A stretch of DNA of 64,000 nucleotides from a virus (taxonomy: Duplodnaviria > Caudoviricetes), in the IMG/VR virus record IMGVR_UViG_3300011116_001227; one strand, written 5' to 3'. Positions within the stretch are counted from its first letter, which is position 1. Each line of letters starts with the position of its first letter. The position numbers and the translations under genes were made by a program. Positions 35,470-62,314 of the stretch are shown one piece after another. The notes under the pieces were generated by a model that was not told the DNA's origin, searched no databases, and saw nothing but the letters and a program-made list of their open reading frames with translations.

Positions 35470-35837
35470 TGTTCTGGAATGAGAACTACGTCTTTGTAGA
35501 CACTATCAGCATGCTTTGCATATTCTTTATCGAGTTCAGTCACACTTTTAATATTTTTTGTTTGAAGCATCAAAACGACATTATCTTCTTCTATAATAAA
35601 TTTTGCATGATGACCTACGTCTTGCTCGTAATTAAGAAGCTGTTTAATAAAGTCGTTTCGGTGTTGAACTACACGAAAATCATACTTTTTCACATAATAC
35701 TCTTGCGATTTCTTCCAACTATTCATTGGAATGACAGGAAGAGATGCCTTCACAGGATCAATTGGCAACGAGCCTTTTATCATTGGCGTTCTAGCATTAC
35801 TAATAAAATTCTCGTGAAGGCTTGCAATAGATTTCAT
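35466..35837 (-). CDS. pterin-4-alpha-carbinolamine dehydratase-like protein
   Basis: W...KKYDF...F...GHHA...LQT...VTELD..A..D pattern. Confidence 0.65.
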   Translation of the reverse strand: MKSIASLHENFISNARTPMIKGSLPIDPVKASLPVIPMNSWKKSQEYYVKKYDFRVVQHRNDFIKQLLNYEQDVGHHAKFIIEEDNVVLMLQTKNIKSVTELDKEYAKHADSVYKDVVLIPEQ

Positions 35838-40686: not shown

Positions 40687-41411
40687 TTTAGCACCAAGCT
40701 AATTGCTTCAGATTTTTTAAATCTCTCTTCAATTACAGTCCAGTTAAATTCTTTCATCTGAGACATCATGTAAGACTTTTTATCTGTCAAGTAATCTCTA
40801 AAGTAGGAATGCTCCCACATGTCAACAACAATCACTGGAAAAAGACCTACCATAACATCGCCACTATGATGACTAATAACAGTATTGACATATCGCTTTA
40901 GAAACATGTTAAAGCCTGTCACTACCCAACCATTTCCTGCGCTAAGTCCTGCTGCAATGAAATCTCGCTGCCAGTCTTCAAACGTTCCAAAGTCTCTTTG
41001 TAGTCTTAAAAAAGACAATGAATCCATTACAATCTCTGAGTGCGGGTCAAAGCAATTAGAAAAATAAAGCTCATGAAGCCATGTTCCATTTAGATTGTAA
41101 GTCTCGTCTAACTTGAGGGAACGATAATCAGAATGTCTTGAATTGGCTGCAGATCTGTCGACAGAATCAAGTTTTGTTGATGACTTATTGAAGGAATCAA
41201 TATATCCTTTGTAAAGCTCAACATGAGCCATCTTTGCTTTCTCTGATAGAAATTCTGTTACTTGCTTGAACTGCTTTGGCTCATGAACATAAGCCTCTTC
41301 TAACAAGTCAGACTCGGCAACAATATCTTTAGACTGTGTTTTTAAAGAATCTTTGATTATGCTTTTAACATCTACACCAAAGATGTTGTTGTCTTTTTTA
41401 GTCGCGGACAT
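40683..41411 (-). CDS. sod: Fe/Mn superoxide dismutase with N-terminal extension
   Basis: HVELYKGY, LHELYF, GNGWV, VDMWEHSYFRDY. Confidence 0.85.
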   Translation of the reverse strand: MSATKKDNNIFGVDVKSIIKDSLKTQSKDIVAESDLLEEAYVHEPKQFKQVTEFLSEKAKMAHVELYKGYIDSFNKSSTKLDSVDRSAANSRHSDYRSLKLDETYNLNGTWLHELYFSNCFDPHSEIVMDSLSFLRLQRDFGTFEDWQRDFIAAGLSAGNGWVVTGFNMFLKRYVNTVISHHSGDVMVGLFPVIVVDMWEHSYFRDYLTDKKSYMMSQMKEFNWTVIEERFKKSEAISLVLK

Positions 41412-41736
41412 AATTTTTCTCCAATTCGTCTTTTGAAACAAAGAAATCATTCGAACCGTCAGGATTACCATCGGGCGGCCTTAGGTCTACACCTCGAATA
41501 CTCACAGCAGTGACTGTATAAAGAACGCCACCCTGATCTTTATAGGTGTTAATTTCGTCCTTATCTTTGTCGTCCCTGACTTTACTTTTGATCTTTAAGC
41601 CTGGATCAAGCACAGATTTGTTCTTGCCGTCGACTTTGGTGTTGAAAGCAAGATCAACCTTTTCAGCAAGGGCAGATAATTTAGAATTCCACTCTTCCCG
41701 AATTAGTTTGATGAAGTCATTATCGTTTTTCTTCAT
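41398..41736 (-). CDS. hypothetical protein with leader variant
   Basis: MKKNDNDFIKLIREEW. Confidence 0.5.
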   Translation of the reverse strand: MKKNDNDFIKLIREEWNSKLSALAEKVDLAFNTKVDGKNKSVLDPGLKIKSKVRDDKDKDEINTYKDQGGVLYTVTAVSIRGVDLRPPDGNPDGSNDFFVSKDELEKNYVRD

Positions 41737-42747: not shown

Positions 42748-43710
42748 TCACTGCATCTTCTGCAACCAATCCCAATTGTCTTCATACCACTTTATTGTTT
42801 TATCTAGACCTTCCCAGACTTTTACTCTTGGATCATAACCTATCAATTCTTTGGCTTTTGTAATATCAGCCTTCGTGTTCTTGACGTCACCGATTCTCCA
42901 AGGCGCGTTATGAGAAATTGCTTTTGGATATTTTGACTTCAAGTAATTAAGAATCTGTAAATTTGTAACAACTTCGCCGACACCAACATTAATAATCTCA
43001 GCTTTGAGATCTTCTTTACAGAGCGCTGATTTAATAAGTGCATCGACAACATTATCAACATAACACATGTCTCTGGATTGCGATCCATCACCGTCAGAAC
43101 GCATTGACTTATTAGACTTTATTGCAGTCAACCAGGCACTGACTGCGGTCGAGTAAGGAGAAGTTCCTAATTGATTCGGACCAAATACGTTGAAGAATCT
43201 TAAGCATACAGAATCGAGACCGTACAGAGAATAAAACAGCTTTAGATAATTCTCAATTATCGCTTTTTGAAGTGCATAAGGAGATTGCGGATTATTGATC
43301 GCAGTCTCTGGTGTAGGAAGTATGTCTGTATTGCCGTAAGAAGATGAAGATGCAGCAAAAACAAATCTTTTGACTGTGCCTTTTGTTTTACATGCATTTA
43401 ATAACATGAGTGTCTTTGACACATTTGTATCATTTGTTTCTACAGGATGTTCTACAGAATAAGTCACTCTTGGATTTGCTGCCAGATGAAAAACATATTC
43501 GTATGCTCCTTCACTAATTCTCTTTAAGACTTCGGGCGATGCAAAATCTTCAACCCACAAGCGCTCTGACCTGAGGTCTACATGCAAAAATTGAGCATTA
43601 CCATTTGAGAGATCATCTACGACGTCGACATGCCACCCTCTCGCATGAAGTGCATTCGAAAGATTACTTCCAATAAAACCTGCGCCACCTGTAACAAGAA
43701 CTTTAGTCAT
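42748..43710 (-). CDS. NAD-dependent NDP-sugar epimerase/dehydratase (extended SDR)
   Basis: ATG 43710; GGAGFIGS, SSSSYG, YALQK, FNVFGP. Confidence 0.9.
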   Translation of the reverse strand: MTKVLVTGGAGFIGSNLSNALHARGWHVDVVDDLSNGNAQFLHVDLRSERLWVEDFASPEVLKRISEGAYEYVFHLAANPRVTYSVEHPVETNDTNVSKTLMLLNACKTKGTVKRFVFAASSSSYGNTDILPTPETAINNPQSPYALQKAIIENYLKLFYSLYGLDSVCLRFFNVFGPNQLGTSPYSTAVSAWLTAIKSNKSMRSDGDGSQSRDMCYVDNVVDALIKSALCKEDLKAEIINVGVGEVVTNLQILNYLKSKYPKAISHNAPWRIGDVKNTKADITKAKELIGYDPRVKVWEGLDKTIKWYEDNWDWLQKMQ

Positions 43711-43762
43711 TCTCGACTCTCCAATTTCGCAATTATAACACTCGTAAAAAATGCGTATAAGA

Positions 43763-44758
43763 TCAAGTCTTCTTCCAAAAAGAATACATGTTCTTCTCAA
43801 TCTCGTAATTCATGAGCTTGACTTCTCTCTTTGGCTGAGTCTTAGCCCATGTTATCATCTTATCGACGAGCTGCTCGAAATTTGTGTCGTCCTTAAAGTC
43901 TAGTTCTCTCTTTGCCTTAGAGTGATCACAATAAGCAATCTTCACTTCATCACGTGGCTCAAGATGAACAATCTTAACATCCAATCCGTGACGCTTAGCA
44001 ACAAGCTGAAAACGCTGAGCAGCTTCGAGGATAGAAACATGACTATCAGCACCAATATTGTAAATTTCGCCATCACCCATCACCATCAATTTTTCAAAAG
44101 GCTCCATGTAAAAATCGACATCAGAGAAAGATCTCATCTGCAAACCATCTCCGAAGATAGTCAGAGGTTGTCCAGATAAACTTTGTCTAATCCAGATGCC
44201 AATTACATTCCTGTATTTATCCCAAATATTCTGGTAAACCCCGAATACATTGTGCGGTCTTACAATGCTGTAATTCAAACCAAAAAATCTATTTGCTGCT
44301 ACTAGATCCTGCTCCACAGTATATTTCGCAATACCGTACGGATCTTCAGGCAATTGTCTTTGAGTCTCTACGAAAGGCGGTGTCTGTGTGCCGTACACGT
44401 CCATCGAACTTGCAAAAATCATCTTTTTAACACTGTTGTTTATGCAAGAATTAATCACGTTTGCAGATGCAACGACATTATTTAAATAGTTGTGATTTCT
44501 GATAAACGGACTTAATCCAACAGCTGCATAAGCAGCAAAGTGATAAACAAAATCAGGTTTCTCTGTCTGCATCATGTAATTAGTCAGTCGAAGATCTGTT
44601 AAATTACATTCATAGATCTGAACTGACTGGTGAACTAAATCTCTATAACCTCCACTAAAATCGTCGATTCCAATTACCTTGTGACCCTTTTTTATAAAGT
44701 GTCTCGACAAATGGTTTCCAAGTAAACCTGCAACGCCAGTGATAAGAATTTTTGACAT
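43763..44758 (-). CDS. NAD-dependent NDP-sugar epimerase/dehydratase
   Basis: GVAGLLG, SSMDVYG, YGIAK, HNVFG. Confidence 0.9.
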   Translation of the reverse strand: MSKILITGVAGLLGNHLSRHFIKKGHKVIGIDDFSGGYRDLVHQSVQIYECNLTDLRLTNYMMQTEKPDFVYHFAAYAAVGLSPFIRNHNYLNNVVASANVINSCINNSVKKMIFASSMDVYGTQTPPFVETQRQLPEDPYGIAKYTVEQDLVAANRFFGLNYSIVRPHNVFGVYQNIWDKYRNVIGIWIRQSLSGQPLTIFGDGLQMRSFSDVDFYMEPFEKLMVMGDGEIYNIGADSHVSILEAAQRFQLVAKRHGLDVKIVHLEPRDEVKIAYCDHSKAKRELDFKDDTNFEQLVDKMITWAKTQPKREVKLMNYEIEKNMYSFWKKT

Positions 44759-44781: not shown

Positions 44782-45693
44782 TCAAATAACGTCTTGTCTG
44801 ACATGTGCGCTATTTAAATTGACGACAAGCGAAATACTCTTTGCTGGCCATAGAAATTTTTTCGTAATAAAAGCAGCAAGATGTGCAAGAAATCTTGTGT
44901 CAATAGACCCGTTTTTTCGAACGTCCGTGCTTCTAAGTGTACAAACAACACTGACATTTTCATTACGGGGAAGAAAATGAATAGAAGAGATACAAGAATT
45001 ACTTGAATAATAAAAACGTCTGGACGAAAGGTCTTGAGGCAAGTTGTAAGGATTTTTACCTTCTAACTCGTTCTCTATGATTTCACAGCATTCTTTCATA
45101 ATACTGCTGTAATATTCACATTCATGTTTATTAAGCATGATCTCATCGTCGCTATAAGAAGGATCGATTGACATCTTGAATTTTAGCTGCTCCTCGTAAG
45201 AAAATAGACCAGACACCCAAGATGATGTCATGTTACCTACTTCTCCAGGCAAAGAATTCTCTTGTGATTTTAAACGATTTGCAACATAATCAGCTAGTTG
45301 ATCCGCAGATTCTGAATTTCTAATCACAAGAACATTCGGCATGTATTGCAGTTTAGATACTTCTTCATCAAATATTTGTCTTAACTTTACAACAGATGCA
45401 GCATCTTGAAATTCATCTCCTCGAGATGATAAACGATCGAGTAAAACATCTTCGGGCGGAATCAAGACGACAAAAAAGTTGTTGAGATCTGATAATTCTT
45501 CTCTCAAAAATTGTCTTTGCTTCTCTACGTCACGACCGTACTGTCTTGCATAACAAAGCATTGAAAGACAGGAACGATCTTGAATGTTGTAACTAAAATT
45601 TGTCGCTTTGTGAAGCTTGCTAATAAAAGTTGTTTTACCTGCTAGATCGGGACCTTCAACTAGCAGATAACGAATTGGAAGTTGTGTCTTCAT
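44782..45693 (-). CDS. dNMP kinase fused to a minimal thymidylate-synthase/dCMP-hydroxymethylase-like domain
   Basis: N-terminal EGPDLAGKTT and DRS; C-terminal SCISSIHF, LRSTDV...D, SAH. Confidence 0.7.
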   Translation of the reverse strand: MKTQLPIRYLLVEGPDLAGKTTFISKLHKATNFSYNIQDRSCLSMLCYARQYGRDVEKQRQFLREELSDLNNFFVVLIPPEDVLLDRLSSRGDEFQDAASVVKLRQIFDEEVSKLQYMPNVLVIRNSESADQLADYVANRLKSQENSLPGEVGNMTSSWVSGLFSYEEQLKFKMSIDPSYSDDEIMLNKHECEYYSSIMKECCEIIENELEGKNPYNLPQDLSSRRFYYSSNSCISSIHFLPRNENVSVVCTLRSTDVRKNGSIDTRFLAHLAAFITKKFLWPAKSISLVVNLNSAHVRQDVI

Positions 45694-45697
45694 AATC

Positions 45698-46174
45698 TTA
45701 AGAACGTAAGATCAATCTTACCAAGCTACGTACAAGATTTTCAAATTTCATCTGTTCGTAACCTTTATTTAAGGTAACAAGATAATCTTTTGAAACTTCT
45801 GACTTCTTTGGGTCGATACTAACATAAGCATAAGCTTCGTAACATCTTCCTTCGCAGTTCACAGTCACTCTAATTTTTTTATAATCTTGTTCAGCTGTTC
45901 TCTTATCAGCGTCTTCGAAACAATCTAAAGATTTTTCTTGTATTGGAGTTGTCTCATATAAGACGCCCTTCACAAAATGTCCTGGTGATTTAATTGCTGT
46001 TGCTCCGTGCCACGTCTTAGAATATCCCGTAAATCCAAGATTAAAGTTAGGCAATACAGCATTTCCGATTTTTTTTAAGTTTAAATCTGTAAAACCACAA
46101 GGAGGACCGGACTTCGCTCTCTTGTGAAGCAAGTCTTGGTCCATGTTGGCGCCATAAGCAAAGTAGAAAGACAT
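45698..46174 (-). CDS. gamma-glutamylcyclotransferase (AIG2-like) family protein
   Basis: YFAYGANM, VKGVLY, LDCFE, AYAY. Confidence 0.8.
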   Translation of the reverse strand: MSFYFAYGANMDQDLLHKRAKSGPPCGFTDLNLKKIGNAVLPNFNLGFTGYSKTWHGATAIKSPGHFVKGVLYETTPIQEKSLDCFEDADKRTAEQDYKKIRVTVNCEGRCYEAYAYVSIDPKKSEVSKDYLVTLNKGYEQMKFENLVRSLVRLILRS

Positions 46175-46192: not shown

Positions 46193-49100
46193 TTATTCGA
46201 CTAAAGCTCTCATTTTATACACTGATGTAGAAAAACCCCAATTTGCATCGTTTGATGCTTGAGCTAACCACAATGTGTAAGGTTTGATTTCTTCTTTTGG
46301 TGTGCCCCATGCACGCAACCAAGCAGTCCTATGTTCATCATCGACGGCTTTAATTCGATAGAAGATCTTTCCATTTTTAGTCTTCTTCACCTGCACTTCT
46401 GCAGCGCAGAACCAACCAATACCTTCTGTCCCTGGTTCAATATCATGAAGTTTTGGAACTTGTTTTTCTGCAATCTTGGACATAACTGCAGGTGGAAACA
46501 AGAGATCTGAATCTACAGACTGTGTCAATTCTTGACACATCAGAATCTTTTCTTCACGCGACCAATCCTCAATTTCAGCAAGAGAAGCTAACGTCACATC
46601 AAGGAAAGCTTCAATCTTCTCACCAGCTTTAGCTTTCTTCTTGAGTTGTGATGCTGTCAATCCGTAAAGGCCTCTACGAAGCATCTCGTAATTTTTGTCA
46701 TCTGTTAATGCCAACAAAAGTTGCTTGTGATTATTAATTTTTCCGACGCTAAAATCTTCGAGCGATGACAATGCATCGATCTTGCAGAGTGCTGACAGAG
46801 CTGTCTTATTCATCTTGCTGTGGCGCCAATTACCTTCATTATCATACAACATCTCCTGGAGATTTTTGTAAGGACGAAGTTGCATGATCTCTTCGACTGC
46901 AGTCGAACCAATGCCCTTGACCGAGCTGAGGGGCGGAACGAAAGCGGCTGCTTCTTCAGAATACTGCCACTCTTTTCCTGAGTAGTTCACATCGATCTTA
47001 GAGAAACTGTAACCGAGCGCTTTGATCTCGGAGATAGTCTTAGCAAGACCTTTTGGATTTGTGTTCTCAGACTGCAGCGCCGTCGCGAGCCATTCTTTCT
47101 CGTAGTGGGTGTGGAGCCACGCAGCGTAGTAGGAGTCGATCGCATATGCTAAACTATGGGATTTATTGAAGCAATAGACTGACATGTTGTCAATTGTCTG
47201 CCAGAGCGGCTCTGTTACTTCAGGACCGACGCCGTGAATGCGCTGTGCACCTTCGATAAACTTCTGTTTCGCGATCTCTTTTTCGGACGTCTTCTTGTCC
47301 AAAGTGTCAAGAGACTTCTTGACAAGCGTCTTGCGTAGCTGATCTGCTTCACCCGGTGTGAAGCCTCCAAGCTTCTCAGCGAGTAACATAAATTGTTCCT
47401 GGTACACTACGAAATTCCTCGTCGGCCCTAGCACCTGTTCGATGATAGGGTGTGGATAATCGATGTGTTCTTTCTTCCTTGCCTCGACGAAAAGGTTGTG
47501 GACATTAGCTTTAAGTGGGCCAGGTCGATAGATCGCAGTGATGGCAGTCAAGTCTTCGATTTTCGTTGGCTTCACTGCTTTGCAGAACTTCCTCGCTCCC
47601 TCTGCTGTCATCTGAAACACAGAGACGAATGCTCCATCTTGGTAGACGTGCTTCCAGACAACAGGATCGTCCTGCTTCACATAACGACAGTTGAGGTGTT
47701 TGTCAAAGAATTCCCTAACGTCCAAGAAAGTAGGATTCGGATTGCCTTGCTTCACGAGGATCCGGCTGATGCAATTCTCCACGTCCTTGAGGAGAGTGAG
47801 ACCCAGGAAGTCGAACTTCAGGAAGCCGTTGTCCTCCAGGTTGCGGAAGTTCATGCCCTCCGTCCACGGTGTCTGAAGTTCACCTCGCACACCGATGATG
47901 GGCATATTCGCCGCGAGGTCGTCGGGATCGGCCAATAGAACGCCACCGGCGTGTCGACCCACCGATCGGTTCTGCATAAACAGGGTTTCGACGTGGGCAG
48001 CCACCTCTGGGTACTTCTCCATGAAGGCCGTGTACTTCGGCGAGTACTTCATGCAGTCCTCATGCTTCAGCACGAAGACCGACTTCTCCTGGTCCTCGTC
48101 TCGAGCCAGCGGCATCACCTCGTCCTGGAGAGGGCCGGTCATCTCGTTCACCTCCTCGAAGGGCACGCCGTAGATCTTGGCGATGTCCTTGACGAGGGAC
48201 TTGAGCTTCAGGGTGTTGAAGTTGGACACCGGGATCACGGCGTCATCGCCGAACAGAGTTCGTGCCGCATCGATAAGGACATCCCTGTCACCTGCGTCTG
48301 TATCGATATCCGGAAAGCTCACTCGGTGTCGTCCCAAAAATCTGCTCCAAAGCAAACCGTATGGTATCGGATCGATCTGCGTGATGCCTAACAGGAAGTT
48401 GACGAGCGATCCCGCACCACTCCCGCGGCCGCTTCCAAAGAGTGTCTTTTCCTTCGCAAGATTGAACACTTTATACATCGTAATGAAGTACGAAGCACAC
48501 TTCAAATACTTGATGTCACCGAGTTCGTATTTTGCTCTTTCCACATACGCAGGCTTGTCGTCTAAGCCTTCACGCTTCAGGCCCTCCATCACAAGCTCGG
48601 TAAGTTGCTTGAACGCAGATTTCTCAGGTGTGTCGACCTTCGGTAGCTTCGGTTTCGTGTCCACCCAGGTGTCTTCGCACTCGTTCCACGTGATGTCGTG
48701 GGTGCGTTCGATGGAGTCACGCACCAATTCTTCAGAACCCTTATAGAACTCGTACTGCTCGTAGGACCGCTTGTACTCATCCCACATCTGGGACGCGTTC
48801 TTTGGATATAGTTCGCACTTGAGGTCTTCGAACTTAGGCAGTGTTGCACCATCAAGTTTGGCACCCATCCAGCCGAGCTTCTTGTACAGCTCACGCGCTT
48901 GCCACTTTGAGGGATCTGGGTAGTGAGAATCACACGTGGAGACGAGCGGCACGCCTGTCTTCTTAGAAAGATCGATCAAGTACTTGTTGACTGTGTGTTG
49001 TTTCTCAAGCTTGTTGAACTGTAGCTCAAGATAAAAGTTTTTGTTGCCCACGGCGCTTTGGAATCTGTCAGTAAGATTCTCAAGATCTGTCATAATCTCG

Positions 49101-50227
49101 TCGTGCGGCTTATTCTGTGCTTCACCTAGAAGAATCTTGCCGCTGTAGATTCCGCCTAGACAGTTATGAACTACAACACCGTTCGCAAAGAAATTGTGGT
49201 TGTCTTCGACAGTAATATCGTAGACATCTTCTGTGTAGTCCAATTCTTCAACTTCGATCACGTCAACGAACTTGTAGGTTTCCATATTATTTTTCATCCA
49301 AGAAACAATCTTGACAGGCATGTTCTCCTTGAGCTCATCGGCACGAAGCCAGCCCTTGTCTGTCAAGACTTGATGGTCTGGTGTGAGTCTTACTTCTTTA
49401 CCATCAGCAGTCTTGAGCTTGACGATCTTTGCAGATGTCCTCGTCTTATCTCCCCACAAGACACGTTTGAACTGCAGTTCTTTGCTTTCTTCATTGAAGG
49501 AAAGAACTATGGGATTCTCCCCTGCCCTGTATCTCTCGATGACTCTTAGCAATGTCTCGGTACCCATGTCTGTTACAAGCTCAGCATCACCCGTAAGACA
49601 CGCCGTCGACCAGATGATGTCTGACCCGTATTTTTGGAGTAGCTCAAAGTCGATTCGAGGATAACGATAGAAGCCGTACTTGTAAGATGCCTTGACAAGT
49701 CTGAAGATGTTCGCAAGACCGTTCTGATTCTTAGCTACAGCAACAAGGTGATAGCGTCGTTGCCAGTCTCTGGATGACACGTCGACTGTCTTGGTTTCAT
49801 TCTCATCTTCAACGACGTGGCCGCCCTGTTCATCCTCTTCTTCGCCCGGATCGGCATCGATGTCTGTAGGAGTCTTGGCACGCTTCTCCATCTCAGCAGC
49901 AGTCTTTGCATCCTTAACGCTCTGCTTATGGGCTTCATAATCAATAGCCCACTGCTTCAGTGAGGGCACAAAGTAGAATTCCACACCGTAGAGCTGTCGA
50001 TACTTCTTGCCCTTCTTCTGTACCTTCAGAGCTGCAGATCGAGCATGTGCTAGACCGTTGCCATTACCATGATCTGTGAGTGCCCAGGCATCCATACCTT
50101 GTGACTCAGAGGTGACAAAGGCAATGTGATCGGCTGGATAGCCGAGTCCGTCGAAGGTGCTAAATCCGCTGTGGCCGTGGAAAGAAACAAATCTGTCAGG
50201 TGGGCGAATAAGATCTAATTTTGACAT
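46193..50227 (-). CDS. dnaE: DNA polymerase III alpha subunit with mini-intein
   Basis: PHP HGHS..STFDG, ALTDHG, GRGSGAGSL, FPDIDTD, GRHAGG, KFDFLGL, FNKSHS. Confidence 0.95.
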   Translation of the reverse strand: MSKLDLIRPPDRFVSFHGHSGFSTFDGLGYPADHIAFVTSESQGMDAWALTDHGNGNGLAHARSAALKVQKKGKKYRQLYGVEFYFVPSLKQWAIDYEAHKQSVKDAKTAAEMEKRAKTPTDIDADPGEEEDEQGGHVVEDENETKTVDVSSRDWQRRYHLVAVAKNQNGLANIFRLVKASYKYGFYRYPRIDFELLQKYGSDIIWSTACLTGDAELVTDMGTETLLRVIERYRAGENPIVLSFNEESKELQFKRVLWGDKTRTSAKIVKLKTADGKEVRLTPDHQVLTDKGWLRADELKENMPVKIVSWMKNNMETYKFVDVIEVEELDYTEDVYDITVEDNHNFFANGVVVHNCLGGIYSGKILLGEAQNKPHDEIMTDLENLTDRFQSAVGNKNFYLELQFNKLEKQHTVNKYLIDLSKKTGVPLVSTCDSHYPDPSKWQARELYKKLGWMGAKLDGATLPKFEDLKCELYPKNASQMWDEYKRSYEQYEFYKGSEELVRDSIERTHDITWNECEDTWVDTKPKLPKVDTPEKSAFKQLTELVMEGLKREGLDDKPAYVERAKYELGDIKYLKCASYFITMYKVFNLAKEKTLFGSGRGSGAGSLVNFLLGITQIDPIPYGLLWSRFLGRHRVSFPDIDTDAGDRDVLIDAARTLFGDDAVIPVSNFNTLKLKSLVKDIAKIYGVPFEEVNEMTGPLQDEVMPLARDEDQEKSVFVLKHEDCMKYSPKYTAFMEKYPEVAAHVETLFMQNRSVGRHAGGVLLADPDDLAANMPIIGVRGELQTPWTEGMNFRNLEDNGFLKFDFLGLTLLKDVENCISRILVKQGNPNPTFLDVREFFDKHLNCRYVKQDDPVVWKHVYQDGAFVSVFQMTAEGARKFCKAVKPTKIEDLTAITAIYRPGPLKANVHNLFVEARKKEHIDYPHPIIEQVLGPTRNFVVYQEQFMLLAEKLGGFTPGEADQLRKTLVKKSLDTLDKKTSEKEIAKQKFIEGAQRIHGVGPEVTEPLWQTIDNMSVYCFNKSHSLAYAIDSYYAAWLHTHYEKEWLATALQSENTNPKGLAKTISEIKALGYSFSKIDVNYSGKEWQYSEEAAAFVPPLSSVKGIGSTAVEEIMQLRPYKNLQEMLYDNEGNWRHSKMNKTALSALCKIDALSSLEDFSVGKINNHKQLLLALTDDKNYEMLRRGLYGLTASQLKKKAKAGEKIEAFLDVTLASLAEIEDWSREEKILMCQELTQSVDSDLLFPPAVMSKIAEKQVPKLHDIEPGTEGIGWFCAAEVQVKKTKNGKIFYRIKAVDDEHRTAWLRAWGTPKEEIKPYTLWLAQASNDANWGFSTSVYKMRALVE
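49163..49600 (-). mobile_element. 146-aa mini-intein (no endonuclease) in the dnaE PHP domain
   Basis: CLTGD block A, TPDH block B, VYDITVEDNHNFFANGVVVHN-C terminus; exteins rejoin as STA-CLGG. Confidence 0.92.
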
Positions 50228-50272: not shown

Positions 50273-51265
50273 TCAAACTTTAGGGAAATGTTGCAGTAGA
50301 TCTGTACCTTTCGACTTAGCTTCATCGAGATACTTCAGAGGGTTATAGTTCTTAGATGAATTTGAAGAAATCCAATCGTAAGTCGCCTTGACGCCGCCCT
50401 CCAAGTCAAGCTTCGGAGACCAGCCAATTTGCTTTCTGACCTTGGCAGATGACAGTCTGTGGTTTCCGAGATAATCAGTCTTTGGATACCAGCGGACGAT
50501 TTTTTCTACGTTTTTCCCGACAACACGAGAAACAAGATTCATGATCTCTGCGGCGGTGTGAGGTGTCTCAGCTGCGACGTTAAAATCAGTACCCCAACCA
50601 TCCTTGCTCTCACAGATCATCGACACGGCTTCACAGTAATCGGACACGTGGAGATAATCCTTGATCTTCGCGGGGTCTAAGAAGATGTCAACAGAATCTT
50701 TGTTCTGCAAGGATGCATAGATACTCTTGGCGATGAGTGAATTCATGTCACCCTCGTCACCAAAAGCGAAGAGAGGACGCACCACAGACCAGCGTTTTGC
50801 CATGCTGGTGATGATCTGTTCACCTGCAAGCTTCTGCACGCCATAATAAGTGAGAGGCTTTCTAGCTGAGTCTTCAAAAATCTGCTGATTCTGGTAGGAA
50901 GGCGTGTCATAAATCACGGTGGTACCCATGTAGCACACGCCGGCACCAGCTGCGTTAGCTGCTCTAACAATATTGTAAGAACCGTGCACGTTGCTCAGCG
51001 TCGCTTCTGCGGGATTGAGAGCAACCACGTCTGTTCCCACAACGGCTGCATTGTGCACAACAACATCAACCCCGTATTTTTTAAAAGCTCTTGACCAAAC
51101 GTCTTCTGAATTTCGGTGCACACACACTTCACCCGTTTTTGGTAACGTAAGCATGTTGTCTCCAATTAGATCAGCATCCGATAGAATCGAGTGACCTCGA
51201 GCAATCAGCTTCTTCTTCAAATGTCTAGCAATAAATCCTGCACCACCCGTAATGTAAAAACGCAT
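50273..51265 (-). CDS. NAD-dependent NDP-sugar epimerase/dehydratase
   Basis: ATG 51265; GGAGFIA, HNAAVVG, YGVQK. Confidence 0.85.
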   Translation of the reverse strand: MRFYITGGAGFIARHLKKKLIARGHSILSDADLIGDNMLTLPKTGEVCVHRNSEDVWSRAFKKYGVDVVVHNAAVVGTDVVALNPAEATLSNVHGSYNIVRAANAAGAGVCYMGTTVIYDTPSYQNQQIFEDSARKPLTYYGVQKLAGEQIITSMAKRWSVVRPLFAFGDEGDMNSLIAKSIYASLQNKDSVDIFLDPAKIKDYLHVSDYCEAVSMICESKDGWGTDFNVAAETPHTAAEIMNLVSRVVGKNVEKIVRWYPKTDYLGNHRLSSAKVRKQIGWSPKLDLEGGVKATYDWISSNSSKNYNPLKYLDEAKSKGTDLLQHFPKV

Positions 51266-51365
51266 GTCTCCTCCGATGCAGAGCATTATAACAAAAAAAG
51301 CGACCAAATACAAGGTCACTTTTTTATAGATCTCGAGATTTTGAGAATGAATTACAAGCTAAAAA

Positions 51366-51698: not shown

Positions 51699-51727
51699 AA
51701 AAATGGCGACTATTTTCATAGTCGCCA
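51699..51727 (-). terminator. intrinsic terminator
   Basis: Minus strand TGGCGACTAT-GAAA-ATAGTCGCCA followed by TTTTT. Confidence 0.8.
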
Positions 51728-51940: not shown

Positions 51941-52414
51941 TCACTCAATTTCTTTGTCATACGGCTCGTAAAGCATCTCACCTTCAGACTTACAGCGTTC
52001 CAGGTAGTCCTCGAGCTCTTCAAAAGAAGTACACACACGCGAGCCTGATCTTGACAACATGAGATTAAACTTTGCTCCGGCAGGAAGTCCTGCGCAGAAA
52101 TAGATAATGTGCTTATCAAAAGCAGTGGCATATCCACATTCCATGATTGTGCCAAGATCCTTGTCACGTGTATTCACCACGAGAAAGTCGGCCTCGCGAA
52201 TGTGCTTTAGGTTCCCCTGATAGGTTGCATCTTGAACCTCTCGAGATGCATTAGGGGGACAGATAAAGATCCTTCGAGGAGACGCCATATCAATCCAGTC
52301 CTTGCGTGCCTCCATGATCTGCTCAAGTCTTGTAAGCTCTGCATCCTGTACAGGATTAAACCATCCGGCTGCAAGATACATCTTCAGAGTACGTCCAAAC
52401 TTATTCTCACTCAT
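51941..52414 (-). CDS. nucleoside 2-deoxyribosyltransferase / NMP hydrolase family protein
   Basis: YLAAGWF, ADFLVV, DLGTIMECGYA. Confidence 0.8.
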   Translation of the reverse strand: MSENKFGRTLKMYLAAGWFNPVQDAELTRLEQIMEARKDWIDMASPRRIFICPPNASREVQDATYQGNLKHIREADFLVVNTRDKDLGTIMECGYATAFDKHIIYFCAGLPAGAKFNLMLSRSGSRVCTSFEELEDYLERCKSEGEMLYEPYDKEIE

Positions 52415-52528: not shown

Positions 52529-53509
52529 TCACTTGTTTGACTTCCAGTTATTGTGCTCAGACTTGAGCTTATCAAACTCAGAAATACCTGAATTCCAATG
52601 CTGAAGGAACTTTCTCTGTGGGCCATCTCCGTGAGTACCATTTAGCTCTTCGCGGGTGCACTGGTAGATTGTATCCTCGGGATGGTACTCGAACTTATCA
52701 TTCTTTGGAATGGGCCAGTATAGGTTTGTGCCGCGGGACACGAACTTATCACCCTCCTTCACGCGGAAGGTCTTGATGTAGTGCATGTCGGGCTTGTTGA
52801 AGTCCACCATCGTGGTGAACTCCGGAATAACCTTGGCAACCTCGACTGCCATTCTTACCGCAAGCAGGTTGTCACTAGATGTTTGAATTTGAGAATCTTG
52901 ACGCTGATAAATGAAGCCCACCAGGTCCTTGAGCGAAAGACGCATATAGTAGAACGAGGTCATGCACTTAGGAAGAATGAGTCGTGCGTCCATCATAGAC
53001 ACGACCTTGGAATCAGTCATATCAGCGTAGAGCTGCTTGGACTCTTCGACAAGCTTCTTCCATCTCGCCAAGAACTCAGGTGAATTCTCTACGGGCTCAG
53101 GAATGACTGCATCGTCGTCGCGGAGGTCGCGATCGCCGGTGCACTGTGCAGCAAAAGTGCCAGCACGGTGGCGGATGATGTGTGTCACCTCTTGGAAAGA
53201 CATACCGCTCAGACGGAATGTGAAACCGAGACATTCCATGGGAGCCGGAAGTGTTCGTCCACCAAAGACGTCCTCCAGGTTCTTAGACAGATCATGATCT
53301 GATGCTGACTCGGGATGGATGTCAGGTCTATCTGCCCAAGTTGCCTTAACATAATGCCAAGCCACGTTCCAAGCTTGCTGTCGCGTCGGATGGTCGACAA
53401 GCTCGATCTTTAGTGCATCGATGTTGTTGAGGAAGTTGGTCTTGACTGGTCGTCCGAACTTTAATTCCATGGGTAGTTCAATCGGCTGTAGGTCTTTATT
53501 AATGGGCAT
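52529..53509 (-). CDS. divergent ThyX-like flavin-dependent protein
   Basis: FTFRLSG, IIRHR, DARLILP and QR..SQIQ follow ThyX, but the RHRx7S Ser is Cys. Confidence 0.75.
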   Translation of the reverse strand: MPINKDLQPIELPMELKFGRPVKTNFLNNIDALKIELVDHPTRQQAWNVAWHYVKATWADRPDIHPESASDHDLSKNLEDVFGGRTLPAPMECLGFTFRLSGMSFQEVTHIIRHRAGTFAAQCTGDRDLRDDDAVIPEPVENSPEFLARWKKLVEESKQLYADMTDSKVVSMMDARLILPKCMTSFYYMRLSLKDLVGFIYQRQDSQIQTSSDNLLAVRMAVEVAKVIPEFTTMVDFNKPDMHYIKTFRVKEGDKFVSRGTNLYWPIPKNDKFEYHPEDTIYQCTREELNGTHGDGPQRKFLQHWNSGISEFDKLKSEHNNWKSNK

Positions 53510-53581
53510 AATTTCTCCAAATATGAGTTGTAGTCTTCAATTATTGTCTATGAGAGGATCAAAGTACAATTGCAATCTTCA

Positions 53582-54523
53582 TCAAAGAATATGGGCAATC
53601 TTATCGATTACGTCTTCATTTTCTTCGACGTAGATAATTCCTCTAACATTTTTTACTTCTTCGTTGTATGATTTTTTAGGAACTACGCATATGACGCCGT
53701 GCTTTGCGTATTCTGACGCATGTTTAGCTGAATCATCTACAGCAAATAATTTTGCAGTCTTATAGAAGTCTTGTCCCGCGAGCCAAGCAAATTTTTCTGG
53801 CGTGAATACTACGTCATCTGCAGGAATCTTGTTGAGGTGCAGCCACGCGTATGTATCGTAAAAGCAAGTTAGATTTTGTGAATCTCTTGCTGTAACTATC
53901 TGCACCCAGTATCCCTTCTGTTTTAAAGCAATTAAGAAGTTGTAGTACTTCTTGCTGAGCTCTAGACGCAAAAATCCATGGTCTTCGATGAATTTCTTAA
54001 AAAAGAATTCGCTGTTTAAACCATGCTCTTTAAACTTCACTGTGTTGTAATATTCTGGACAATACGGGTCCATGAATATTCCTGTTTGATCTGTAACATA
54101 TTTACAGAATTCATTTCTAAACTCTGCCAACACATCGTCGATGTCAAACAAAACGATGGGTTCTCCTGACCACTTCTTGTCTCGAAGTTGGTGTCTGTAA
54201 TGAAGATAATGATCTTTCTGTTCAAGAGCTGACGTCAATTGTTCTGAAGTAAGATTCCATAAATTTGCAATTGCCAAGATGTAACGATACGCGTCAGCAG
54301 ACTTATACAAGATCTTTTGCAGATCTGTTTCTCTTGCTTCTCTGCGATGTTCTTTGTAGTTGACAGCACTGCACAAATCTGTAATCTCGGAGTGAAGTGC
54401 AAGACTTAAAGTTTTAAACTCTTCGATCTTCTGTTCGTCAGTTAACTCAGATGAATTATAAAAGTAATTTGAAAAAGTCTTTTGCGTTCTCAACGCATCA
54501 ACAAGGTAATTCCAGTTAGACAT
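53582..54523 (-). CDS. MazG-like NTP pyrophosphatase fused to a HAD 5'(3')-nucleotidase
   Basis: LHSEITDL...SADAY N-domain; FDIDDVL, VTAR, AVDDS HAD motifs. Confidence 0.7.
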   Translation of the reverse strand: MSNWNYLVDALRTQKTFSNYFYNSSELTDEQKIEEFKTLSLALHSEITDLCSAVNYKEHRREARETDLQKILYKSADAYRYILAIANLWNLTSEQLTSALEQKDHYLHYRHQLRDKKWSGEPIVLFDIDDVLAEFRNEFCKYVTDQTGIFMDPYCPEYYNTVKFKEHGLNSEFFFKKFIEDHGFLRLELSKKYYNFLIALKQKGYWVQIVTARDSQNLTCFYDTYAWLHLNKIPADDVVFTPEKFAWLAGQDFYKTAKLFAVDDSAKHASEYAKHGVICVVPKKSYNEEVKNVRGIIYVEENEDVIDKIAHIL

Positions 54524-54526
54524 GTA

Positions 54527-54943
54527 TCAATAACCGCTCTTTAGACGCTGAACATTAATTGCACCCTTCTTCATAAAAGCTTCGTGCAATTCTTCAGAAG
54601 AAATTCCACTATAAATGACGATGCCAAAGAAGTAGTGTAATGCGTCTACGAGCTCTTCTTTGTAAGATTCTCTATCGAATTCTTTGACTTCTGTCACGCG
54701 ATGATTCTTGCTGTTCTTCAAGAGATGATTAGCTTCAAAAAGCTCGTGCATACATTCGTGAGCTAATCCTTTTAAAATTTGTTGATTCTTCTTTTCTTTT
54801 AAATCGAGAGGAAAATCCGGGTAACCTCTATCGTCCCTTAACAAATAATTAAAGTCACGTTGTTGATTGTACATCTCATCAAGTTTATCCATGCAAACCT
54901 CTTGTGTTATTTTAAACCCGACAACACTCAAAGTACAATACAA
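54527..54943 (-). CDS. all-alpha dNTP pyrophosphatase (MazG / dimeric dUTPase / dCTPase-like)
   Basis: HECMHELFEA, EELVDALHYF. Confidence 0.75.
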   Translation of the reverse strand: MYCTLSVVGFKITQEVCMDKLDEMYNQQRDFNYLLRDDRGYPDFPLDLKEKKNQQILKGLAHECMHELFEANHLLKNSKNHRVTEVKEFDRESYKEELVDALHYFFGIVIYSGISSEELHEAFMKKGAINVQRLKSGY

Positions 54944-55503: not shown

Positions 55504-56148
55504 TCATTTACCATGGGGCTTATTTTCTTGAACACCTTGTGGGGTCACTGTGACAAATCTAGCCTTACCCCGCAACTCCCTGATGGTCCGGGCTCCTGAA
55601 TAGGATAACCCGGACCGAATTCCGTCTAGCATCTCTGTTATCGTTGTCCTCATGGATCCCTTGTAAGAAATCATTGTCGATTCACCTTCGACGACTGAAA
55701 CACGGCCTCTCCAACTCATCTGAGCTTCCTTCGAAGCCATGCCTCGGAACTTCTTAAACAATGGAACACCGGCATGAGGCTTGGTCTTATATGTCATGCC
55801 CTTTTCATCCACAAGCTCACCTGGGGATTCATCATGACCGGCAAGGATCGAACCTAACATGAGCATGTCGGCTCCGGCTGCCAAAGCCTTTACAGCATCT
55901 CCGCTATTCCTAATTCCACCGTCAGCAATAAGGTAGACATCCCTATCTGACTTGCCACAATCCATCACAGACTGCAGGGTTGGAATTCCATGTCCTGTAC
56001 GGATCCGAGTAGAACACATGGAATTGTGAACAACATATCCTTCTGCAACATATGAGCTATTGTCTTCAACAGTAAGGTCATGAACTTTATGACCTTCACT
56101 ATGGAATGTTTCAACACTTTTGACAGAATGCAGTTTGAATTTTTTCAT
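55504..56148 (-). CDS. split intein C-fragment (42 aa) fused to the IMPDH/GMP-reductase C-terminal half
   Basis: MKKF...VHDLTVEDNSSYVAEGYVVHN then SMCSTR (catalytic Cys), ADGGIRNSGD, MLGSILAG, FRGMAS. Confidence 0.92.
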   Translation of the reverse strand: MKKFKLHSVKSVETFHSEGHKVHDLTVEDNSSYVAEGYVVHNSMCSTRIRTGHGIPTLQSVMDCGKSDRDVYLIADGGIRNSGDAVKALAAGADMLMLGSILAGHDESPGELVDEKGMTYKTKPHAGVPLFKKFRGMASKEAQMSWRGRVSVVEGESTMISYKGSMRTTITEMLDGIRSGLSYSGARTIRELRGKARFVTVTPQGVQENKPHGK

Positions 56149-57217
56149 ATGTTTCTTTTATCAGTTGAATTGCTTTTTCAAAATCAACTTTTCTCAGTTT
56201 ATCTTCTTTTATTCTAACAAGATGATATCCATTGTTCATTGCAATCTTGTTTTTTATAAGATCTGTTTTTCCATCAGATTTTTCTTTGTGAAAATAATAA
56301 CCATCATACTCAACAAGAAGCTTTTCACCGACCAAAATATCAAAAACCCTACCCCGGAGAGGGAATTGGCTTTTTACATTATCATTTCCAAATTCGTCAA
56401 CACACATTTGGAAAAGTTTAAGCTCTGGTGCAGAAATAACTTTTTCATATTTTCCTTTTAAGAAAATATCTTTTATTTCTTGTTTCGATTTAATGCCATG
56501 ATATAAAGCTAACTTTTTTAATGTTCTTACATCAATTCCACAGTCTTTCTTTAAGTCTGCAACTCCATATCCAAATTTAGAGTTTTTTGAGTAACACTCA
56601 AGTAGATTACAAATCTTCTCTTTTGTCAACCCAACCTCTTCATATTTTTTGATGGTCAAAAATTTATGATTTTTAGCATGCCAATCCTTACGGCTTTTAT
56701 TAGCTTTTTCTATAGACTCTTTAGAATGTTTTTTTCCATAAAATCCATTCTTCGAACCCATACAAACATCACTCATGTTTTTTGAATAATTGTCTTTAAT
56801 TTTTTCAAATTCTTCTTGAGAATATTTCTCTTTCCAAATTTCCTGGATCGGCTTTCCATACATCGGGTTTTTATTACCCGAATATTTCTCAGATCTGCTT
56901 TTTTTATAATCTTTTAGCCAGTCAGGATCAACACTTTCTGACCATTTTTTGCCATAAAACGGATTTTTTTCTCCAATTTTATTACAACTCTGACATGACC
57001 AACTTTTAGTATACAAAAATGTGTTAAAAAATTTTCTTGATTCTTTTAGTTTATCACATTGAACACAAAAAATTTGATAACACGAAATTTGTTTCTTGTC
57101 AAACTTTTTTTGACATTCCGTAATAAAAAAACATTTTCTTCCTTGTTTTTCTAGTCCGACAACTCTATATTGATTATCTCCAACAAAAACTATTCTTTTT
57201 GAAAATTCTTGGTGCAT
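56111..57217 (-). mobile_element. free-standing Vsr/DUF559-like homing endonuclease inside the fractured IMPDH gene
   Basis: NPFYGKK/NPMYGK/NGFYGKKH NUMOD3-like repeats; C-terminal SAPE...FDI...VEYDGYYFH...D...GY.LVRI.E; markedly AT-rich. Confidence 0.8.
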
Positions 57218-57250
57218 AAGGTTTCACCCCCTATGCCTAAATATATCGAA

Positions 57251-58153
57251 TCAAATAATCTCTACTAAGGAATAGTTTTCATTTAAATCGGCAGCAGGAA
57301 TCCATTTCGCGAATTCATGAATATTTTCATCATTGACATTGGGAATATCTTTGTTTTCAACCACATATATTTCATGATTTAGAGTACATGTTAATGAATT
57401 GTTAATCTTTACAAGAAGATCTGCAAAAGGTCTTTCAAAAAGATTGATTACTTCTTTTACTTCACCTGTGTGAGTTAAAACAGAGTCACCAACTTTCACA
57501 GTCTCAATTGATTTTTTCGTACCATCGGACATAGTAATTGAAGTTCCAGGAATAAAACACCCGCCCCCGACACCGACGCGGATCGATGAAGAACCCCAAT
57601 CAGCAAGGTCATTGAATGCCTCCAGGGTAGCAACGTTTCCGGTCATGATGTGAATATCATTCCCGAACTTGTTCCTCATCAACGTCAATGCAGATTTCAC
57701 GGATGAATGATGGCCGTGGGCGACATCAATACAGAAAGCTTGACATCCGACGTTGTGAAGAGCAGTGGCCCTTTCTAGAAAATCTCCAGTTGCACCAACG
57801 GCAATCATAACATTTGGAATCATTCTTTCAGGTGTCACCCTTAACTCGTTGACCTTGAGGAATGCCTTGACCGCTTCATCGATCGTACAATACCGATGAA
57901 GAATACCAAAGCCACCCAACTCATCAAGCAGAGCGGCGGCAGTTGGACCTATGACAGTATCCATCGGAGATCCTACGATCGGACAAGAAAGAACTGGGTG
58001 TGTCGGGGTCAGGCTTGCCGTGGTCTCATCTAGGCCGGTAACACTAAGATTCACATTTGAACGTGTCTCAATATCAGAATACTGAGGAGTCAAAAGGACA
58101 TCATCAAAACAGAGAGTTCGCTGCATGCCTCGATCGTACTCCAAAAGAGGCAT
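57251..58153 (-). CDS. IMPDH/GMP-reductase N-terminal half fused to a split intein N-fragment (102 aa, 57251..57559)
   Basis: FDDVLL, SPMDTV, IDVAHG, GNVAT, RVGVGGG then CFIPGT...TLNH...WIPAADL; no CBS domain. Confidence 0.92.
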   Translation of the reverse strand: MPLLEYDRGMQRTLCFDDVLLTPQYSDIETRSNVNLSVTGLDETTASLTPTHPVLSCPIVGSPMDTVIGPTAAALLDELGGFGILHRYCTIDEAVKAFLKVNELRVTPERMIPNVMIAVGATGDFLERATALHNVGCQAFCIDVAHGHHSSVKSALTLMRNKFGNDIHIMTGNVATLEAFNDLADWGSSSIRVGVGGGCFIPGTSITMSDGTKKSIETVKVGDSVLTHTGEVKEVINLFERPFADLLVKINNSLTCTLNHEIYVVENKDIPNVNDENIHEFAKWIPAADLNENYSLVEII

Positions 58154-61534: not shown

Positions 61535-62314
61535 TTATTTTAAAGATTCAACAATCTTATCGTAATACACAGGATCTTTTTCTACAAGAATAAATTTTCG
61601 TCCTAAAGCTCTGGCTGAATGACCAGTCGATCCACTGCCCGCAAAGATGTCAACAACAATGTCTCCTGGATCTGTGTGAATTTCGATAGGAATCTGAGCT
61701 AGCTTCTCAGGCTTCTGCGTGGGGTGAATCTTTCCTCTAAAAATCTCTGTAATATCAGTCCAAACATTTGTTCTACGATAGAATTCGCTCTTTGCTGGAT
61801 ACTTCTTGTTGTAACCAGCATAACCTCTTTTATCATCAAGATACGGTACATTAAATTTTCGAGGTCTATCAGCTCTACCTTTAACGAAATAAGCAAGCTC
61901 TTCTCGCGTAAAGATGTAGTTTCTAGGAACGCCATACGCTCTCTTCTTTTTCCAAGTAATTAAATTTGCAAGTTGAAAATTTTCTGATTCAACATCAAGC
62001 ATGTACTGAAAAAATGGACGGAAATTCTTTTTGCCAACTCCACCCCAGACATAAAAACTTCCACCTTCAATTAAAATATCAGACCAAATTTTGGTCCACT
62101 CGACCATCCATGCAGAGAATTGCTTCTCGTTAAGTTTAGTCTTGTCCCATTTCTCATCTAAAATATTCCCATAAGGTGGGTCTGTAAAGATCAAAGCTGC
62201 TTGTTTTTGATCTTGACCTTGCAAGTACAATTTTACTTCATTAATGACGTCAGGATCTGTACAGTCTCCATTAATACAAAGTCCATCATTAAAAATATCT
62301 TTTCTTGAAAACAT
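61535..62314 (-). CDS. DNA N6-adenine/N4-cytosine methyltransferase (beta class)
   Basis: TDPPY before DIFAGSGST; HPTQKP. Confidence 0.9.
   Translation of the reverse strand: MFSRKDIFNDGLCINGDCTDPDVINEVKLYLQGQDQKQAALIFTDPPYGNILDEKWDKTKLNEKQFSAWMVEWTKIWSDILIEGGSFYVWGGVGKKNFRPFFQYMLDVESENFQLANLITWKKKRAYGVPRNYIFTREELAYFVKGRADRPRKFNVPYLDDKRGYAGYNKKYPAKSEFYRRTNVWTDITEIFRGKIHPTQKPEKLAQIPIEIHTDPGDIVVDIFAGSGSTGHSARALGRKFILVEKDPVYYDKIVESLK

Follow-up and report, generated by a model that had tools for sequence, protein, structure and literature searches.

The 64,000-nucleotide window analyzed here, which comes from an uncultured aquatic phage (IMG/VR virus record IMGVR_UViG_3300011116_001227; Duplodnaviria; Caudoviricetes), carries a gene for a 326-amino-acid (aa) protein related to the flavin-dependent thymidylate synthase ThyX (positions 52529 to 53509, including the stop codon). 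The gene, like all parts of its unit described below, lies on the minus strand. It is defined by its open reading frame (ORF), a Pfam Thy1 match and an AlphaFold2 (AF2) model; a Shine-Dalgarno sequence, GGAG, stands 5 nt before its ATG (53515 to 53518), and the N terminus M-P-x-N is conserved among homologs. Four genes in the same orientation form the unit, with the ThyX-like gene in third place, and a strong hairpin resembling a terminator (10-bp stem and T run; 51704 to 51727) closes it. The first encodes a 138-aa dUTPase_2/MazG-like all-alpha nucleoside triphosphate (NTP) pyrophosphohydrolase (54527 to 54943; Pfam dUTPase_2, 28.6 bits; phrog_12184). The second encodes a 313-aa fusion (53582 to 54523) with an NT5C/HAD 5'-deoxynucleotidase at residues 122 to 294 (Pfam NT5C, 26.3 bits; also PHROGs) and residues 1 to 110 without a Pfam assignment. 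The fourth, directly downstream of the ThyX-like gene, encodes a 157-aa protein of the nucleoside deoxyribosyltransferase (NDT) family (51941 to 52414; Pfam Nuc_deoxyrib_tr, 50.8 bits; phrog_7995). In this predicted unit, the ThyX-like gene is co-transcribed with the NDT-family enzyme, the deoxynucleoside monophosphate (dNMP) nucleotidase fusion and the dUTPase_2-type NTPase. An earlier, sequence-only reading had placed it next to NDT and dNTPase genes, and this position was confirmed (51941 to 52414 and 53582 to 54943, all in the same orientation).

Membership of the protein in the ThyX family is clear. It matched Pfam Thy1 (PF02511) over residues 67 to 230 with 60.2 bits (cut-off, 24.8) and the PHROG "thymidylate synthase" family with an E value of 3.5e-10. 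Its score against the NCBIfam thyX equivalog model TIGR02170 was 33.7 bits, below the cut-off of 87.9. The AF2 model (pLDDT, 95.6; pTM, 0.91; alignment of 66 sequences) had only ThyX-family structures among its top fold matches (Foldseek and VIA-align; Z, 13 to 17), with a root mean square deviation of 2.3 to 2.9 Å over approximately 200 to 210 residues. These structures included the ThyX-family proteins of Mycobacterium tuberculosis, C. glutamicum, Thermotoga maritima, H. pylori and PBCV-1, as well as PolB, and the ThyX core of the model comprises approximately residues 24 to 240. When the PDB was searched with the single sequence (phmmer), T. maritima ThyX carrying the S88C mutation (3g4c) was the best match. 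The gene encodes a conserved, clearly delimited viral ThyX variant.

Individual residues were mapped by aligning a subfamily profile to M. tuberculosis ThyX (ungapped; E = 4e-17) and by phmmer against T. maritima ThyX. The canonical motif RHR-x7-S-x-R-Y is replaced by RHR-x7-C-T-G-D-R, within a rebuilt active-site loop that keeps RHR (residues 110 to 132, HIIRHRAGTFAAQCTGDRDLRDD; 53114 to 53182) and whose residues 113 to 127 read RHRAGTFAAQCTGDR (53129 to 53173). Cys123 falls on the motif Ser (S105 in M. tuberculosis, S88 in T. maritima), Gly125 on the motif Arg (R107 and R90, respectively) and Asp126 on the motif Tyr (Y108 and Y91); Arg127 follows directly and Arg130 lies further on. The alignments to both reference enzymes thus bear out the sequence-only reading, which had described a ThyX homolog with RHRx7S changed to RHRx7C and R-Y replaced by TGD. 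A gapped phmmer alignment to wild-type T. maritima ThyX had set Cys123 one position off the motif Ser; this placement was dropped because the M. tuberculosis profile alignment is ungapped and much stronger.

Upstream of this loop, the segment RTLPAPMEC (residues 85 to 93; 53231 to 53257) is the counterpart of H-x-[ST]-x-x-E-H in alignments to both reference enzymes. Within it, L87-P-A-P-M-E92-C93 lacks both canonical His residues; the earlier remark that the upstream His of H-x-S-P-F-E-H was not evident applies to both positions, which are occupied by L87 and C93. Leu87, at the position of the folate-stacking His (H53 in T. maritima), is Leu in 82 of 93 subfamily representatives. Glu92 is kept (E58 in T. 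maritima), with Cys93 in place of H59. The remaining functional positions are largely retained. ARLILP (residues 175 to 180; 52970 to 52987) contains Arg176, equivalent to R147 of T. maritima in nucleotide phosphate binding, and IYQRQDSQIQT (residues 200 to 210; 52880 to 52912) contains Arg203, equivalent to R174 in uracil activation; ARLILP and the late Arg and Gln (R203 and Q209) are thus present as first noted, along with Asp205. Overall, the nucleotide-binding and -activating arginines R78, R80, R147 and R174 of T. maritima ThyX are retained as R113, R115, R176 and R203, which occur in 93, 88, 90 and 91 of the 93 representatives, respectively. The FAD (flavin adenine dinucleotide)-holding residues are likewise present as RHR, Glu92 and Lys194, the latter at the position of R165.

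The residues that changed have known or proposed roles in canonical ThyX. The active-site loop of the T. maritima enzyme (residues 86 to 97) carries S88, R90 and Y91, of which S88 and Y91 are proposed to help the attack of deoxyuridine monophosphate (dUMP) on the flavin N5-carbinolamine during methylene transfer, while R90 is thought to make Y91 more acidic and R174 activates dUMP (PMC8316439). The pterin of the folate, or the reduced flavin, stacks against H53, whose hydrogen bond to Y91 gates the folate site; flavin oxidation is approximately 1,000-fold slower in a Y91 mutant (PMC11940539). As the changed residues are those with assigned parts in moving the methylene group and in gating the folate site, the subfamily has retained the FAD-holding and the nucleotide-binding and -polarizing parts of ThyX and has exchanged the one-carbon-transfer parts for an equally invariant alternative. 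The protein is very probably an active flavoenzyme that acts on a pyrimidine mononucleotide.

What such an enzyme would make can be read in more than one way. It may be a divergent but genuine thymidylate (dTMP) synthase converting dUMP to dTMP, with Cys in the place of Ser and with Asp126-Arg127 or Arg130 in the place of Arg90-Tyr91. The ThyX fold with R113, R115, R176 and R203 in place is consistent with this explanation, and so is the S88C T. maritima enzyme, whose solved structure (3g4c) indicates that Cys is possible at the motif Ser of a folded ThyX. However, none of the four residues that have been assigned a part in methylene transfer or folate gating is retained (PMC8316439, PMC11940539), and we regard a plain dTMP synthase as a serious possibility that nevertheless falls short of probable. 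The same replacements could also point away from folate altogether, to an enzyme that uses the ThyX scaffold only to stack a nucleotide on FAD, either as an O2-dependent C5 hydroxylase producing 5-hydroxy-dUMP or 5-hydroxy-dCMP (dCMP, deoxycytidine monophosphate) or as a simple pyrimidine-ring reductase or oxidase. The folate-stacking His has given way to an invariant Leu87, and the carbinolamine-handling loop has been remodeled; furthermore, phage ThyA homologs have already passed from folate to flavin chemistry for 5-hydroxy-dCMP synthesis (PMC13326640). However, Leu could still serve as a stacking platform for the pterin, and no residue pattern that stabilizes a C4a-hydroperoxide is known in the ThyX fold, which makes a folate-independent enzyme improbable.

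The remodeled loop is widely conserved. More than 1,000 metagenomic proteins matched the ThyX-like protein, the best 120 at 77 to 92% identity, and IMG/VR contained at least 80 loci at 54 to 89% identity on contigs of up to 284 kb. Among 68 distinct homologs, reaching down to 46% identity (Geobacillus phage GR1), I-R-H-R-x3-F-A-A-Q-C-T-G-D-R-D-L-R was invariant or nearly so and residues 122 to 127 were invariant; C123, T124, G125, D126, R127, L87, E92, R113, R115, R176 and R203 were found in 68 of 68. Because these residues are invariant across the set, the remodeled loop is, as far as sequence comparison can tell, the product of neither chance nor decay. When 1.84 billion cluster representatives were searched exhaustively, only 332 relatives were recovered at E values of at most 0.001 (approximately 280 to 350 residues; 22 to 46% identity). 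In this wider subfamily the motif is Q/H-x-x-R-x-R-(7-8)-C-[TS]-G-D-x-D-x-R; substitutions of the RHR His are frequent, and the Cys is sometimes Ser, Thr, Gly or Ala.

The subfamily is small and almost purely viral. Canonical ThyX was present in 1,849 of 50,697 phage records, and the long form represented by the window protein in nine, one of them full-length. A cellular origin was considered and dropped, as the clade was found in only 2 of 185,579 species genomes, each time on a contig of a metagenome-assembled genome (MAG) in which the long form was the sole Thy1 match. No cultured phage is close to the phage of the window, whose DnaE polymerase is 26 to 29% identical to known ones. In the literature we found no paper on the long-form subfamily or on Geobacillus phage GR1 and no characterized ThyX-type hydroxymethylase, and the MetaGPA paper does not mention Thy1.

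The long form also differs from canonical ThyX at its C-terminal end. The Pfam Thy1 match stops at residue 230 and leaves 96 residues that are ordered in the model. The sequence-only reading had described them as an extra tail of approximately 90 aa; the length is about right, but the segment consists of an internal insertion followed by a retained helix. Residues 241 to 299 (52613 to 52789) form a subfamily-specific insertion of approximately 60 residues that lies outside the ThyX structures and is ordered in the model, and residues 300 to 326 (52532 to 52612) form the terminal helix in the AF2 model and the structural alignments. In many of these alignments residues ~300 to 312 match the last helix of canonical ThyX, which is why the "tail" is better described as an insertion before that helix. 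Within the insertion, T261-N262-x-Y264-x-P266, N270-D271-x-F273 and Y282 are invariant; P266, present in 81 of the 93 representatives, can be taken as a hallmark of the subfamily. An Atlas feature search with residues 233 to 326 returned only Thy1-labeled clusters, and the possibility of an independent domain was dropped. Fold matches in the PDB beyond ThyX were weak helical repeats (Z, ~5). An invariant new loop together with a 60-residue insertion argues for a distinct, selected function and against the protein being a plain dTMP synthase.

Most related phages encode a canonical ThyX as well. To count paralogs, 18 related long contigs from IMG/VR were searched over their entire records with PF02511. 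Both forms were present in 13 of the 18, including the 100%-complete contig and the entire set of five with a completeness of 61% or more; the long form occurred alone in the other five, which are 28 to 54% complete. The short canonical copies (open frames of 227 to 267 aa), which carry HRHRTWSYNEISRRY or KHRVGVSINAESARY, scored 115 to 179 bits against PF02511, and the long forms 55 to 75 bits. Against TIGR02170, the short copies reached 105 to 175 bits and passed the cut-off of 87.9, while the long forms reached 34 to 50 bits. In some contigs the short and long genes lie 3 to 4 kb apart. No ThyA gene (PF00303) exceeded the cut-off in the nine related records searched. That the long form fails the equivalog model its co-resident paralogs pass, and that both copies are kept in 13 of 18 contigs although the long form has diverged to 54% identity, both speak against a second plain dTMP synthase. 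If the long form were one, the phage would have two isozymes, the canonical copy differing from the long form in, for instance, timing or reductant.

A tblastn search of the 64-kb window with related canonical copies found no canonical ThyX. However, positions 50.3 to 62.2 kb of the window are collinear with positions 36.7 to 50.0 kb of contig G001, whose canonical ThyX lies 17 kb beyond its long form; a canonical copy is therefore predicted a few kilobases past the end of the window. The coexistence of the two forms could also be explained if the long form were a noncatalytic, ThyX-derived nucleotide-binding or regulatory subunit, for instance in mixed tetramers with canonical ThyX. ThyX active sites are indeed built from several subunits, and the paralogs coexist in most of the long contigs. 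However, Geobacillus phage GR1 has no canonical partner, and the invariance of the substrate-binding arginines, of the acidic and Cys residues of the loop and of many polar residues of the insertion is the pattern of an enzyme. A noncatalytic role is accordingly very improbable.

Geobacillus phage GR1 (complete; 79 kb) is the sole complete cultured genome with the long form (UDY80709), and it encodes neither ThyA nor canonical ThyX. This gene content fits the long form as a dTMP synthase, and directly upstream of its ThyX-like gene lies a gene of the nitroreductase/flavin-reductase type that could supply reducing power. This gene (locus L001, 8286 to 8885) encodes a nitroreductase/dihydropteridine-reductase-type flavoprotein, and a glycosyltransferase is encoded 2 kb further up. 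As no nitroreductase homolog was found in the 88 other loci, a flavin reductase of the GR1 type was rejected as a conserved partner of the subfamily.

The genes around the ThyX-like gene are conserved along with it. Among 63 loci flanked on each side by 3 kb or more of sequence, NDT was found within 3 kb in 62, the NTPase in 54 and the nucleotidase fusion in 48, although these loci are not independent, as most belong to one syntenic lineage. NDT and/or dNMP nucleotidase genes (NT5C or HD/YfbR) also adjoin subfamily members of 22 to 36% identity in unrelated phage types: NDT and an HD/YfbR nucleotidase beside P0125, NDT beside P0231 from a Pol A phage and an NT5C gene beside P0242. In GR1, NDT and an HD protein lie approximately 4 kb from the long-form gene. 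The NDT-family protein of the window retains the catalytic Glu motif D-L-G-T-I-M-E-C-G-Y, and its best PDB match is the nucleoside deoxyribosyltransferase 6evs (E = 1.4e-4); DNPH1 matched weakly (E > 0.01). The nucleotidase fusion may take deoxynucleoside triphosphates down to the nucleoside, and a similar NT5C protein of approximately 311 aa adjoins a 22%-identical ThyX-like gene in locus L111. In locus L103 (1630 to 2415), a short contig, the distant member P0216 lies two genes from a nucleotide-sugar transferase gene of the Nucleotid_trans family (PF03407).

The unit is part of a larger replication and nucleotide block that includes dCMP deaminase, thymidine kinase (TK), a thymidylate-kinase-like protein, three nucleoside diphosphate (NDP)-sugar enzymes of the short-chain dehydrogenase/reductase (SDR) family and a GGCT-like protein. 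The three SDR genes encode extended-SDR NDP-sugar epimerases or dehydratases (42748 to 44758 and 50273 to 51319, minus strand), adjoin the GGCT-like gene (45698 to 46174) and recall the genes for sugar-nucleotide enzymes in phages whose modified bases are glycosylated (PMC13326640). No glycosyltransferase was identified in the window, in which several large ORFs are without a Pfam match. A 303-aa protein (44782 to 45693, minus strand) begins with a P-loop kinase part (phrog_761, thymidylate kinase); the C-terminal part of approximately 150 residues had no match in Pfam or in a PDB sequence search, and no ThyA-type domain was detected in it.

These neighbors are typical dTMP-supply enzymes, and a dTMP synthase would sit well among them, in a supply and salvage module in which dUTPase delivers dUMP and the nucleotidase, NDT and TK rebalance deoxynucleosides. 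The block has also been considered in terms of cytosine. Under this explanation the protein would correspond, on the ThyX fold, to T4 gp42 or to dCMP methylases, with Cys123 adding at C6 and Asp126 handling N3 and N4 to give 5-methyl-, 5-hydroxymethyl- or 5-hydroxy-dCMP, and the dUTPase_2-type NTPase would be a dCTPase. ThyA-type and DNA C5 enzymes that act on C5 of cytosine require a nucleophilic Cys together with an acidic residue, as exemplified by Asp179 of T4 dCMP hydroxymethylase and the N177D rule (PMC8670742, PMC13326640), and the invariant C-T-G-D fits this logic. Furthermore, three NDP-sugar SDR enzymes lie in the block, a feature shared with phages in which modified cytosine is glycosylated (PMC13326640), and two thymidylate synthase (TS)-family paralogs together with a dNMP-kinase-like gene, dCMP deaminase and TK parallel T4. 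However, the Arg that recognizes and activates uracil O4 and N3 (R174 in T. maritima) is strictly kept, and the dCMP deaminase of the block feeds dUMP. As both features favor dUMP over dCMP, we consider a cytosine substrate unlikely.

We favor the explanation that the ThyX-like protein is a neofunctionalized ThyX paralog, not redundant with the canonical thymidylate synthase, and that its product is a pyrimidine deoxynucleotide modified at C5 but different from dTMP; we put the probability of this explanation at approximately one-half. The sequence-only reading had suggested a flavoenzyme with a different nucleotide or a different chemistry. The kept fold with its flavin and nucleotide sites agrees with the first part of this suggestion, and a new function is favored because the four transfer and gating residues are replaced, the new loop and insertion are strictly conserved, the protein falls below the equivalog cut-off and the long form has long been retained together with canonical ThyX; the case of GR1, which suits a dTMP synthase, leaves the change of chemistry short of established.

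In the proposed mechanism the substrate would likely be dUMP, since the uracil-activating Arg is kept and a dCMP deaminase and a dUTPase-type enzyme are encoded in the block. With dUMP stacked on reduced FAD, C5 would be activated by Arg203, perhaps aided by the addition of Cys123 at C6, and a one-carbon unit would move from flavin N5 to C5. The resulting 5-methylene intermediate would be captured instead of being reduced to a methyl group, most simply by water with Asp126 as the base, yielding 5-hydroxymethyl-dUMP as the entry to a modified thymine in phage DNA. That the product is this particular nucleotide is the simplest version of the neofunctionalized paralog, but we consider it rather doubtful in so specific a form. 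More broadly, and still tentatively, the subfamily could represent the first ThyX-fold enzyme with a product other than a 5-methyl nucleotide, a flavin-dependent 5-hydroxymethyl- (or 5-hydroxy-) dUMP or dCMP synthase with a Cys/Asp loop for Ser/Arg/Tyr. Such an enzyme would start an undescribed DNA base modification in widespread large aquatic phages and GR1-like phages, with the NDT enzyme and the nucleotidase routing or policing the modified nucleotide.

Several observations weigh against a neofunctionalized paralog. Substrate, cofactor and product are predictions, and the canonical ThyX of the window's own phage would lie outside the window, as suggested by synteny with G001. All nucleotide-binding arginines are retained, including the one that activates uracil, and Asp126-Arg127 may do the work of Arg90-Tyr91 in a rewired form. 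The genes of dUTPase, nucleotidase and NDT type next to it, along with TK, also fit a thymidylate supply or salvage module, and GR1, with the long form only, fits a plain phage dTMP synthase as well. Furthermore, ThyA and ThyX coexist in M. tuberculosis without making different products (PMC2386288), and neither a 5-hydroxymethyldeoxyuridine (5-hmdU) DNA kinase nor an aGPT-Pplase was identified in the window in a search that was not exhaustive.

Either outcome would be informative. To our knowledge, the ThyX family has so far shown one chemistry, and its sole known functional offshoot, PolB, still methylates. On the unrelated ThyA fold, phage paralogs have yielded new DNA-modification chemistry more than once. 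A search for comparable diversification on a flavin scaffold would naturally start with a conserved viral ThyX subfamily that coexists with normal ThyX and has exchanged precisely the methylene-transfer residues. If a new nucleotide is made, abundant phages of marine and fresh waters would turn out to carry a modified base, and the enzyme would offer a new flavin mechanism for study and another tool for making modified DNA. If the protein is an ordinary dTMP synthase, the Ser/Arg/Tyr loop and His53 would be dispensable, which matters for the ThyX mechanism and for inhibitor design.

Elsewhere in the window, an IMPDH/GMP-reductase-family gene (55504 to 58153, minus strand) is split by an intein with Hint domains at both junctions, and the intein carries a NUMOD3 homing-endonuclease ORF (56111 to 57217). 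It is uncommon for a phage to encode an IMPDH/GMP reductase, and the enzyme might affect purine pools. The DnaE-type Pol III alpha subunit (46193 to 50227, minus strand; 1,344 aa) also contains an intein, and in related contigs such as L002 the polymerase is called as several ORFs between intein and endonuclease inserts. Further minus-strand genes, at 40683 to 41471, 35834 to 36592 and 61535 to 62314, encode a protein whose C-terminal domain is of the Fe/Mn superoxide dismutase type, a carbon-nitrogen hydrolase, and an N6/N4 DNA methyltransferase beside an HNH endonuclease.

Compared with canonical ThyX (T. maritima TM0449 and M. tuberculosis Rv2754c), the ThyX-like protein has a similar fold (Z, ~16 to 17) and shares RHR, the Glu equivalent to E58, Arg147, Arg174 and a basic residue at R165. 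It differs in the loop, where S-x-R-Y has become C-T-G-D(-R), in the changes of His53 to Leu and His59 to Cys, and in having approximately 24 extra N-terminal residues besides the ~60-residue insertion before the last helix. PolB of Streptomyces cacaoi, a UMP/dUMP C5-methylase of polyoxin biosynthesis, is a neofunctionalized ThyX paralog with a changed substrate (PMC5954106). Its structures (PDB 4p5a and 4p5b) are among the best structural matches (Z, 15.8 to 16.2), and PolB too is a second ThyX-family gene with a new role. However, it still methylates and has changed only its sugar specificity, whereas the ThyX-like protein is viral and altered in the catalytic loop itself.

Among phages, Bacillus phage SP-15 encodes two Thy1-family proteins, gp9 and gp130, of which gp130 has been hypothesized to be a hydroxymethyluridylate synthase (PMC5977210). 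The likeness lies in two Thy1-family genes in one phage, which in the case of SP-15 has a modified thymine, and in the idea of a non-methylating ThyX-type paralog. It does not extend to homology with gp130, the sole proposed flavin-dependent dUMP hydroxymethylase: the subfamily profile matched gp9 alone (19.6 bits), and gp130 was rejected as a homolog. No experimental follow-up of the gp130 proposal was found in the literature. Phage ThyA paralogs make hydroxymethyl or hydroxy pyrimidines in T4-, SPO1- and RB69-type phages, as exemplified by the dCMP hydroxymethylase T4 gp42, the SPO1-type dUMP hydroxymethylase and the 5-hydroxy-dCMP synthases RB69 gp48 and DLP3 gp80 (PMC13326640, PMC8989533). 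The genomic logic is the same, with a TS and a remodeled TS paralog near genes for dNTPase, dNMP kinase, deaminase and sugar-nucleotide enzymes, but the ThyA and ThyX folds are unrelated.

MilA/MilB and BcmA/BcmB are pairs of a TS-like pyrimidine hydroxymethylase and an NDT-family N-glycosidase, and DNPH1 is a 5-hydroxymethyl-dUMP N-hydrolase. The Mil and Bcm partners are of the ThyA fold and belong to antibiotic or vitamin-analog pathways; MilA has been described as such a TS-like hydroxymethylase (PMC13326640). The locus described here resembles these systems in pairing a putative C5-modifying TS-type enzyme with an NDT-family enzyme, which in the window is the neighbor that weakly matches DNPH1.

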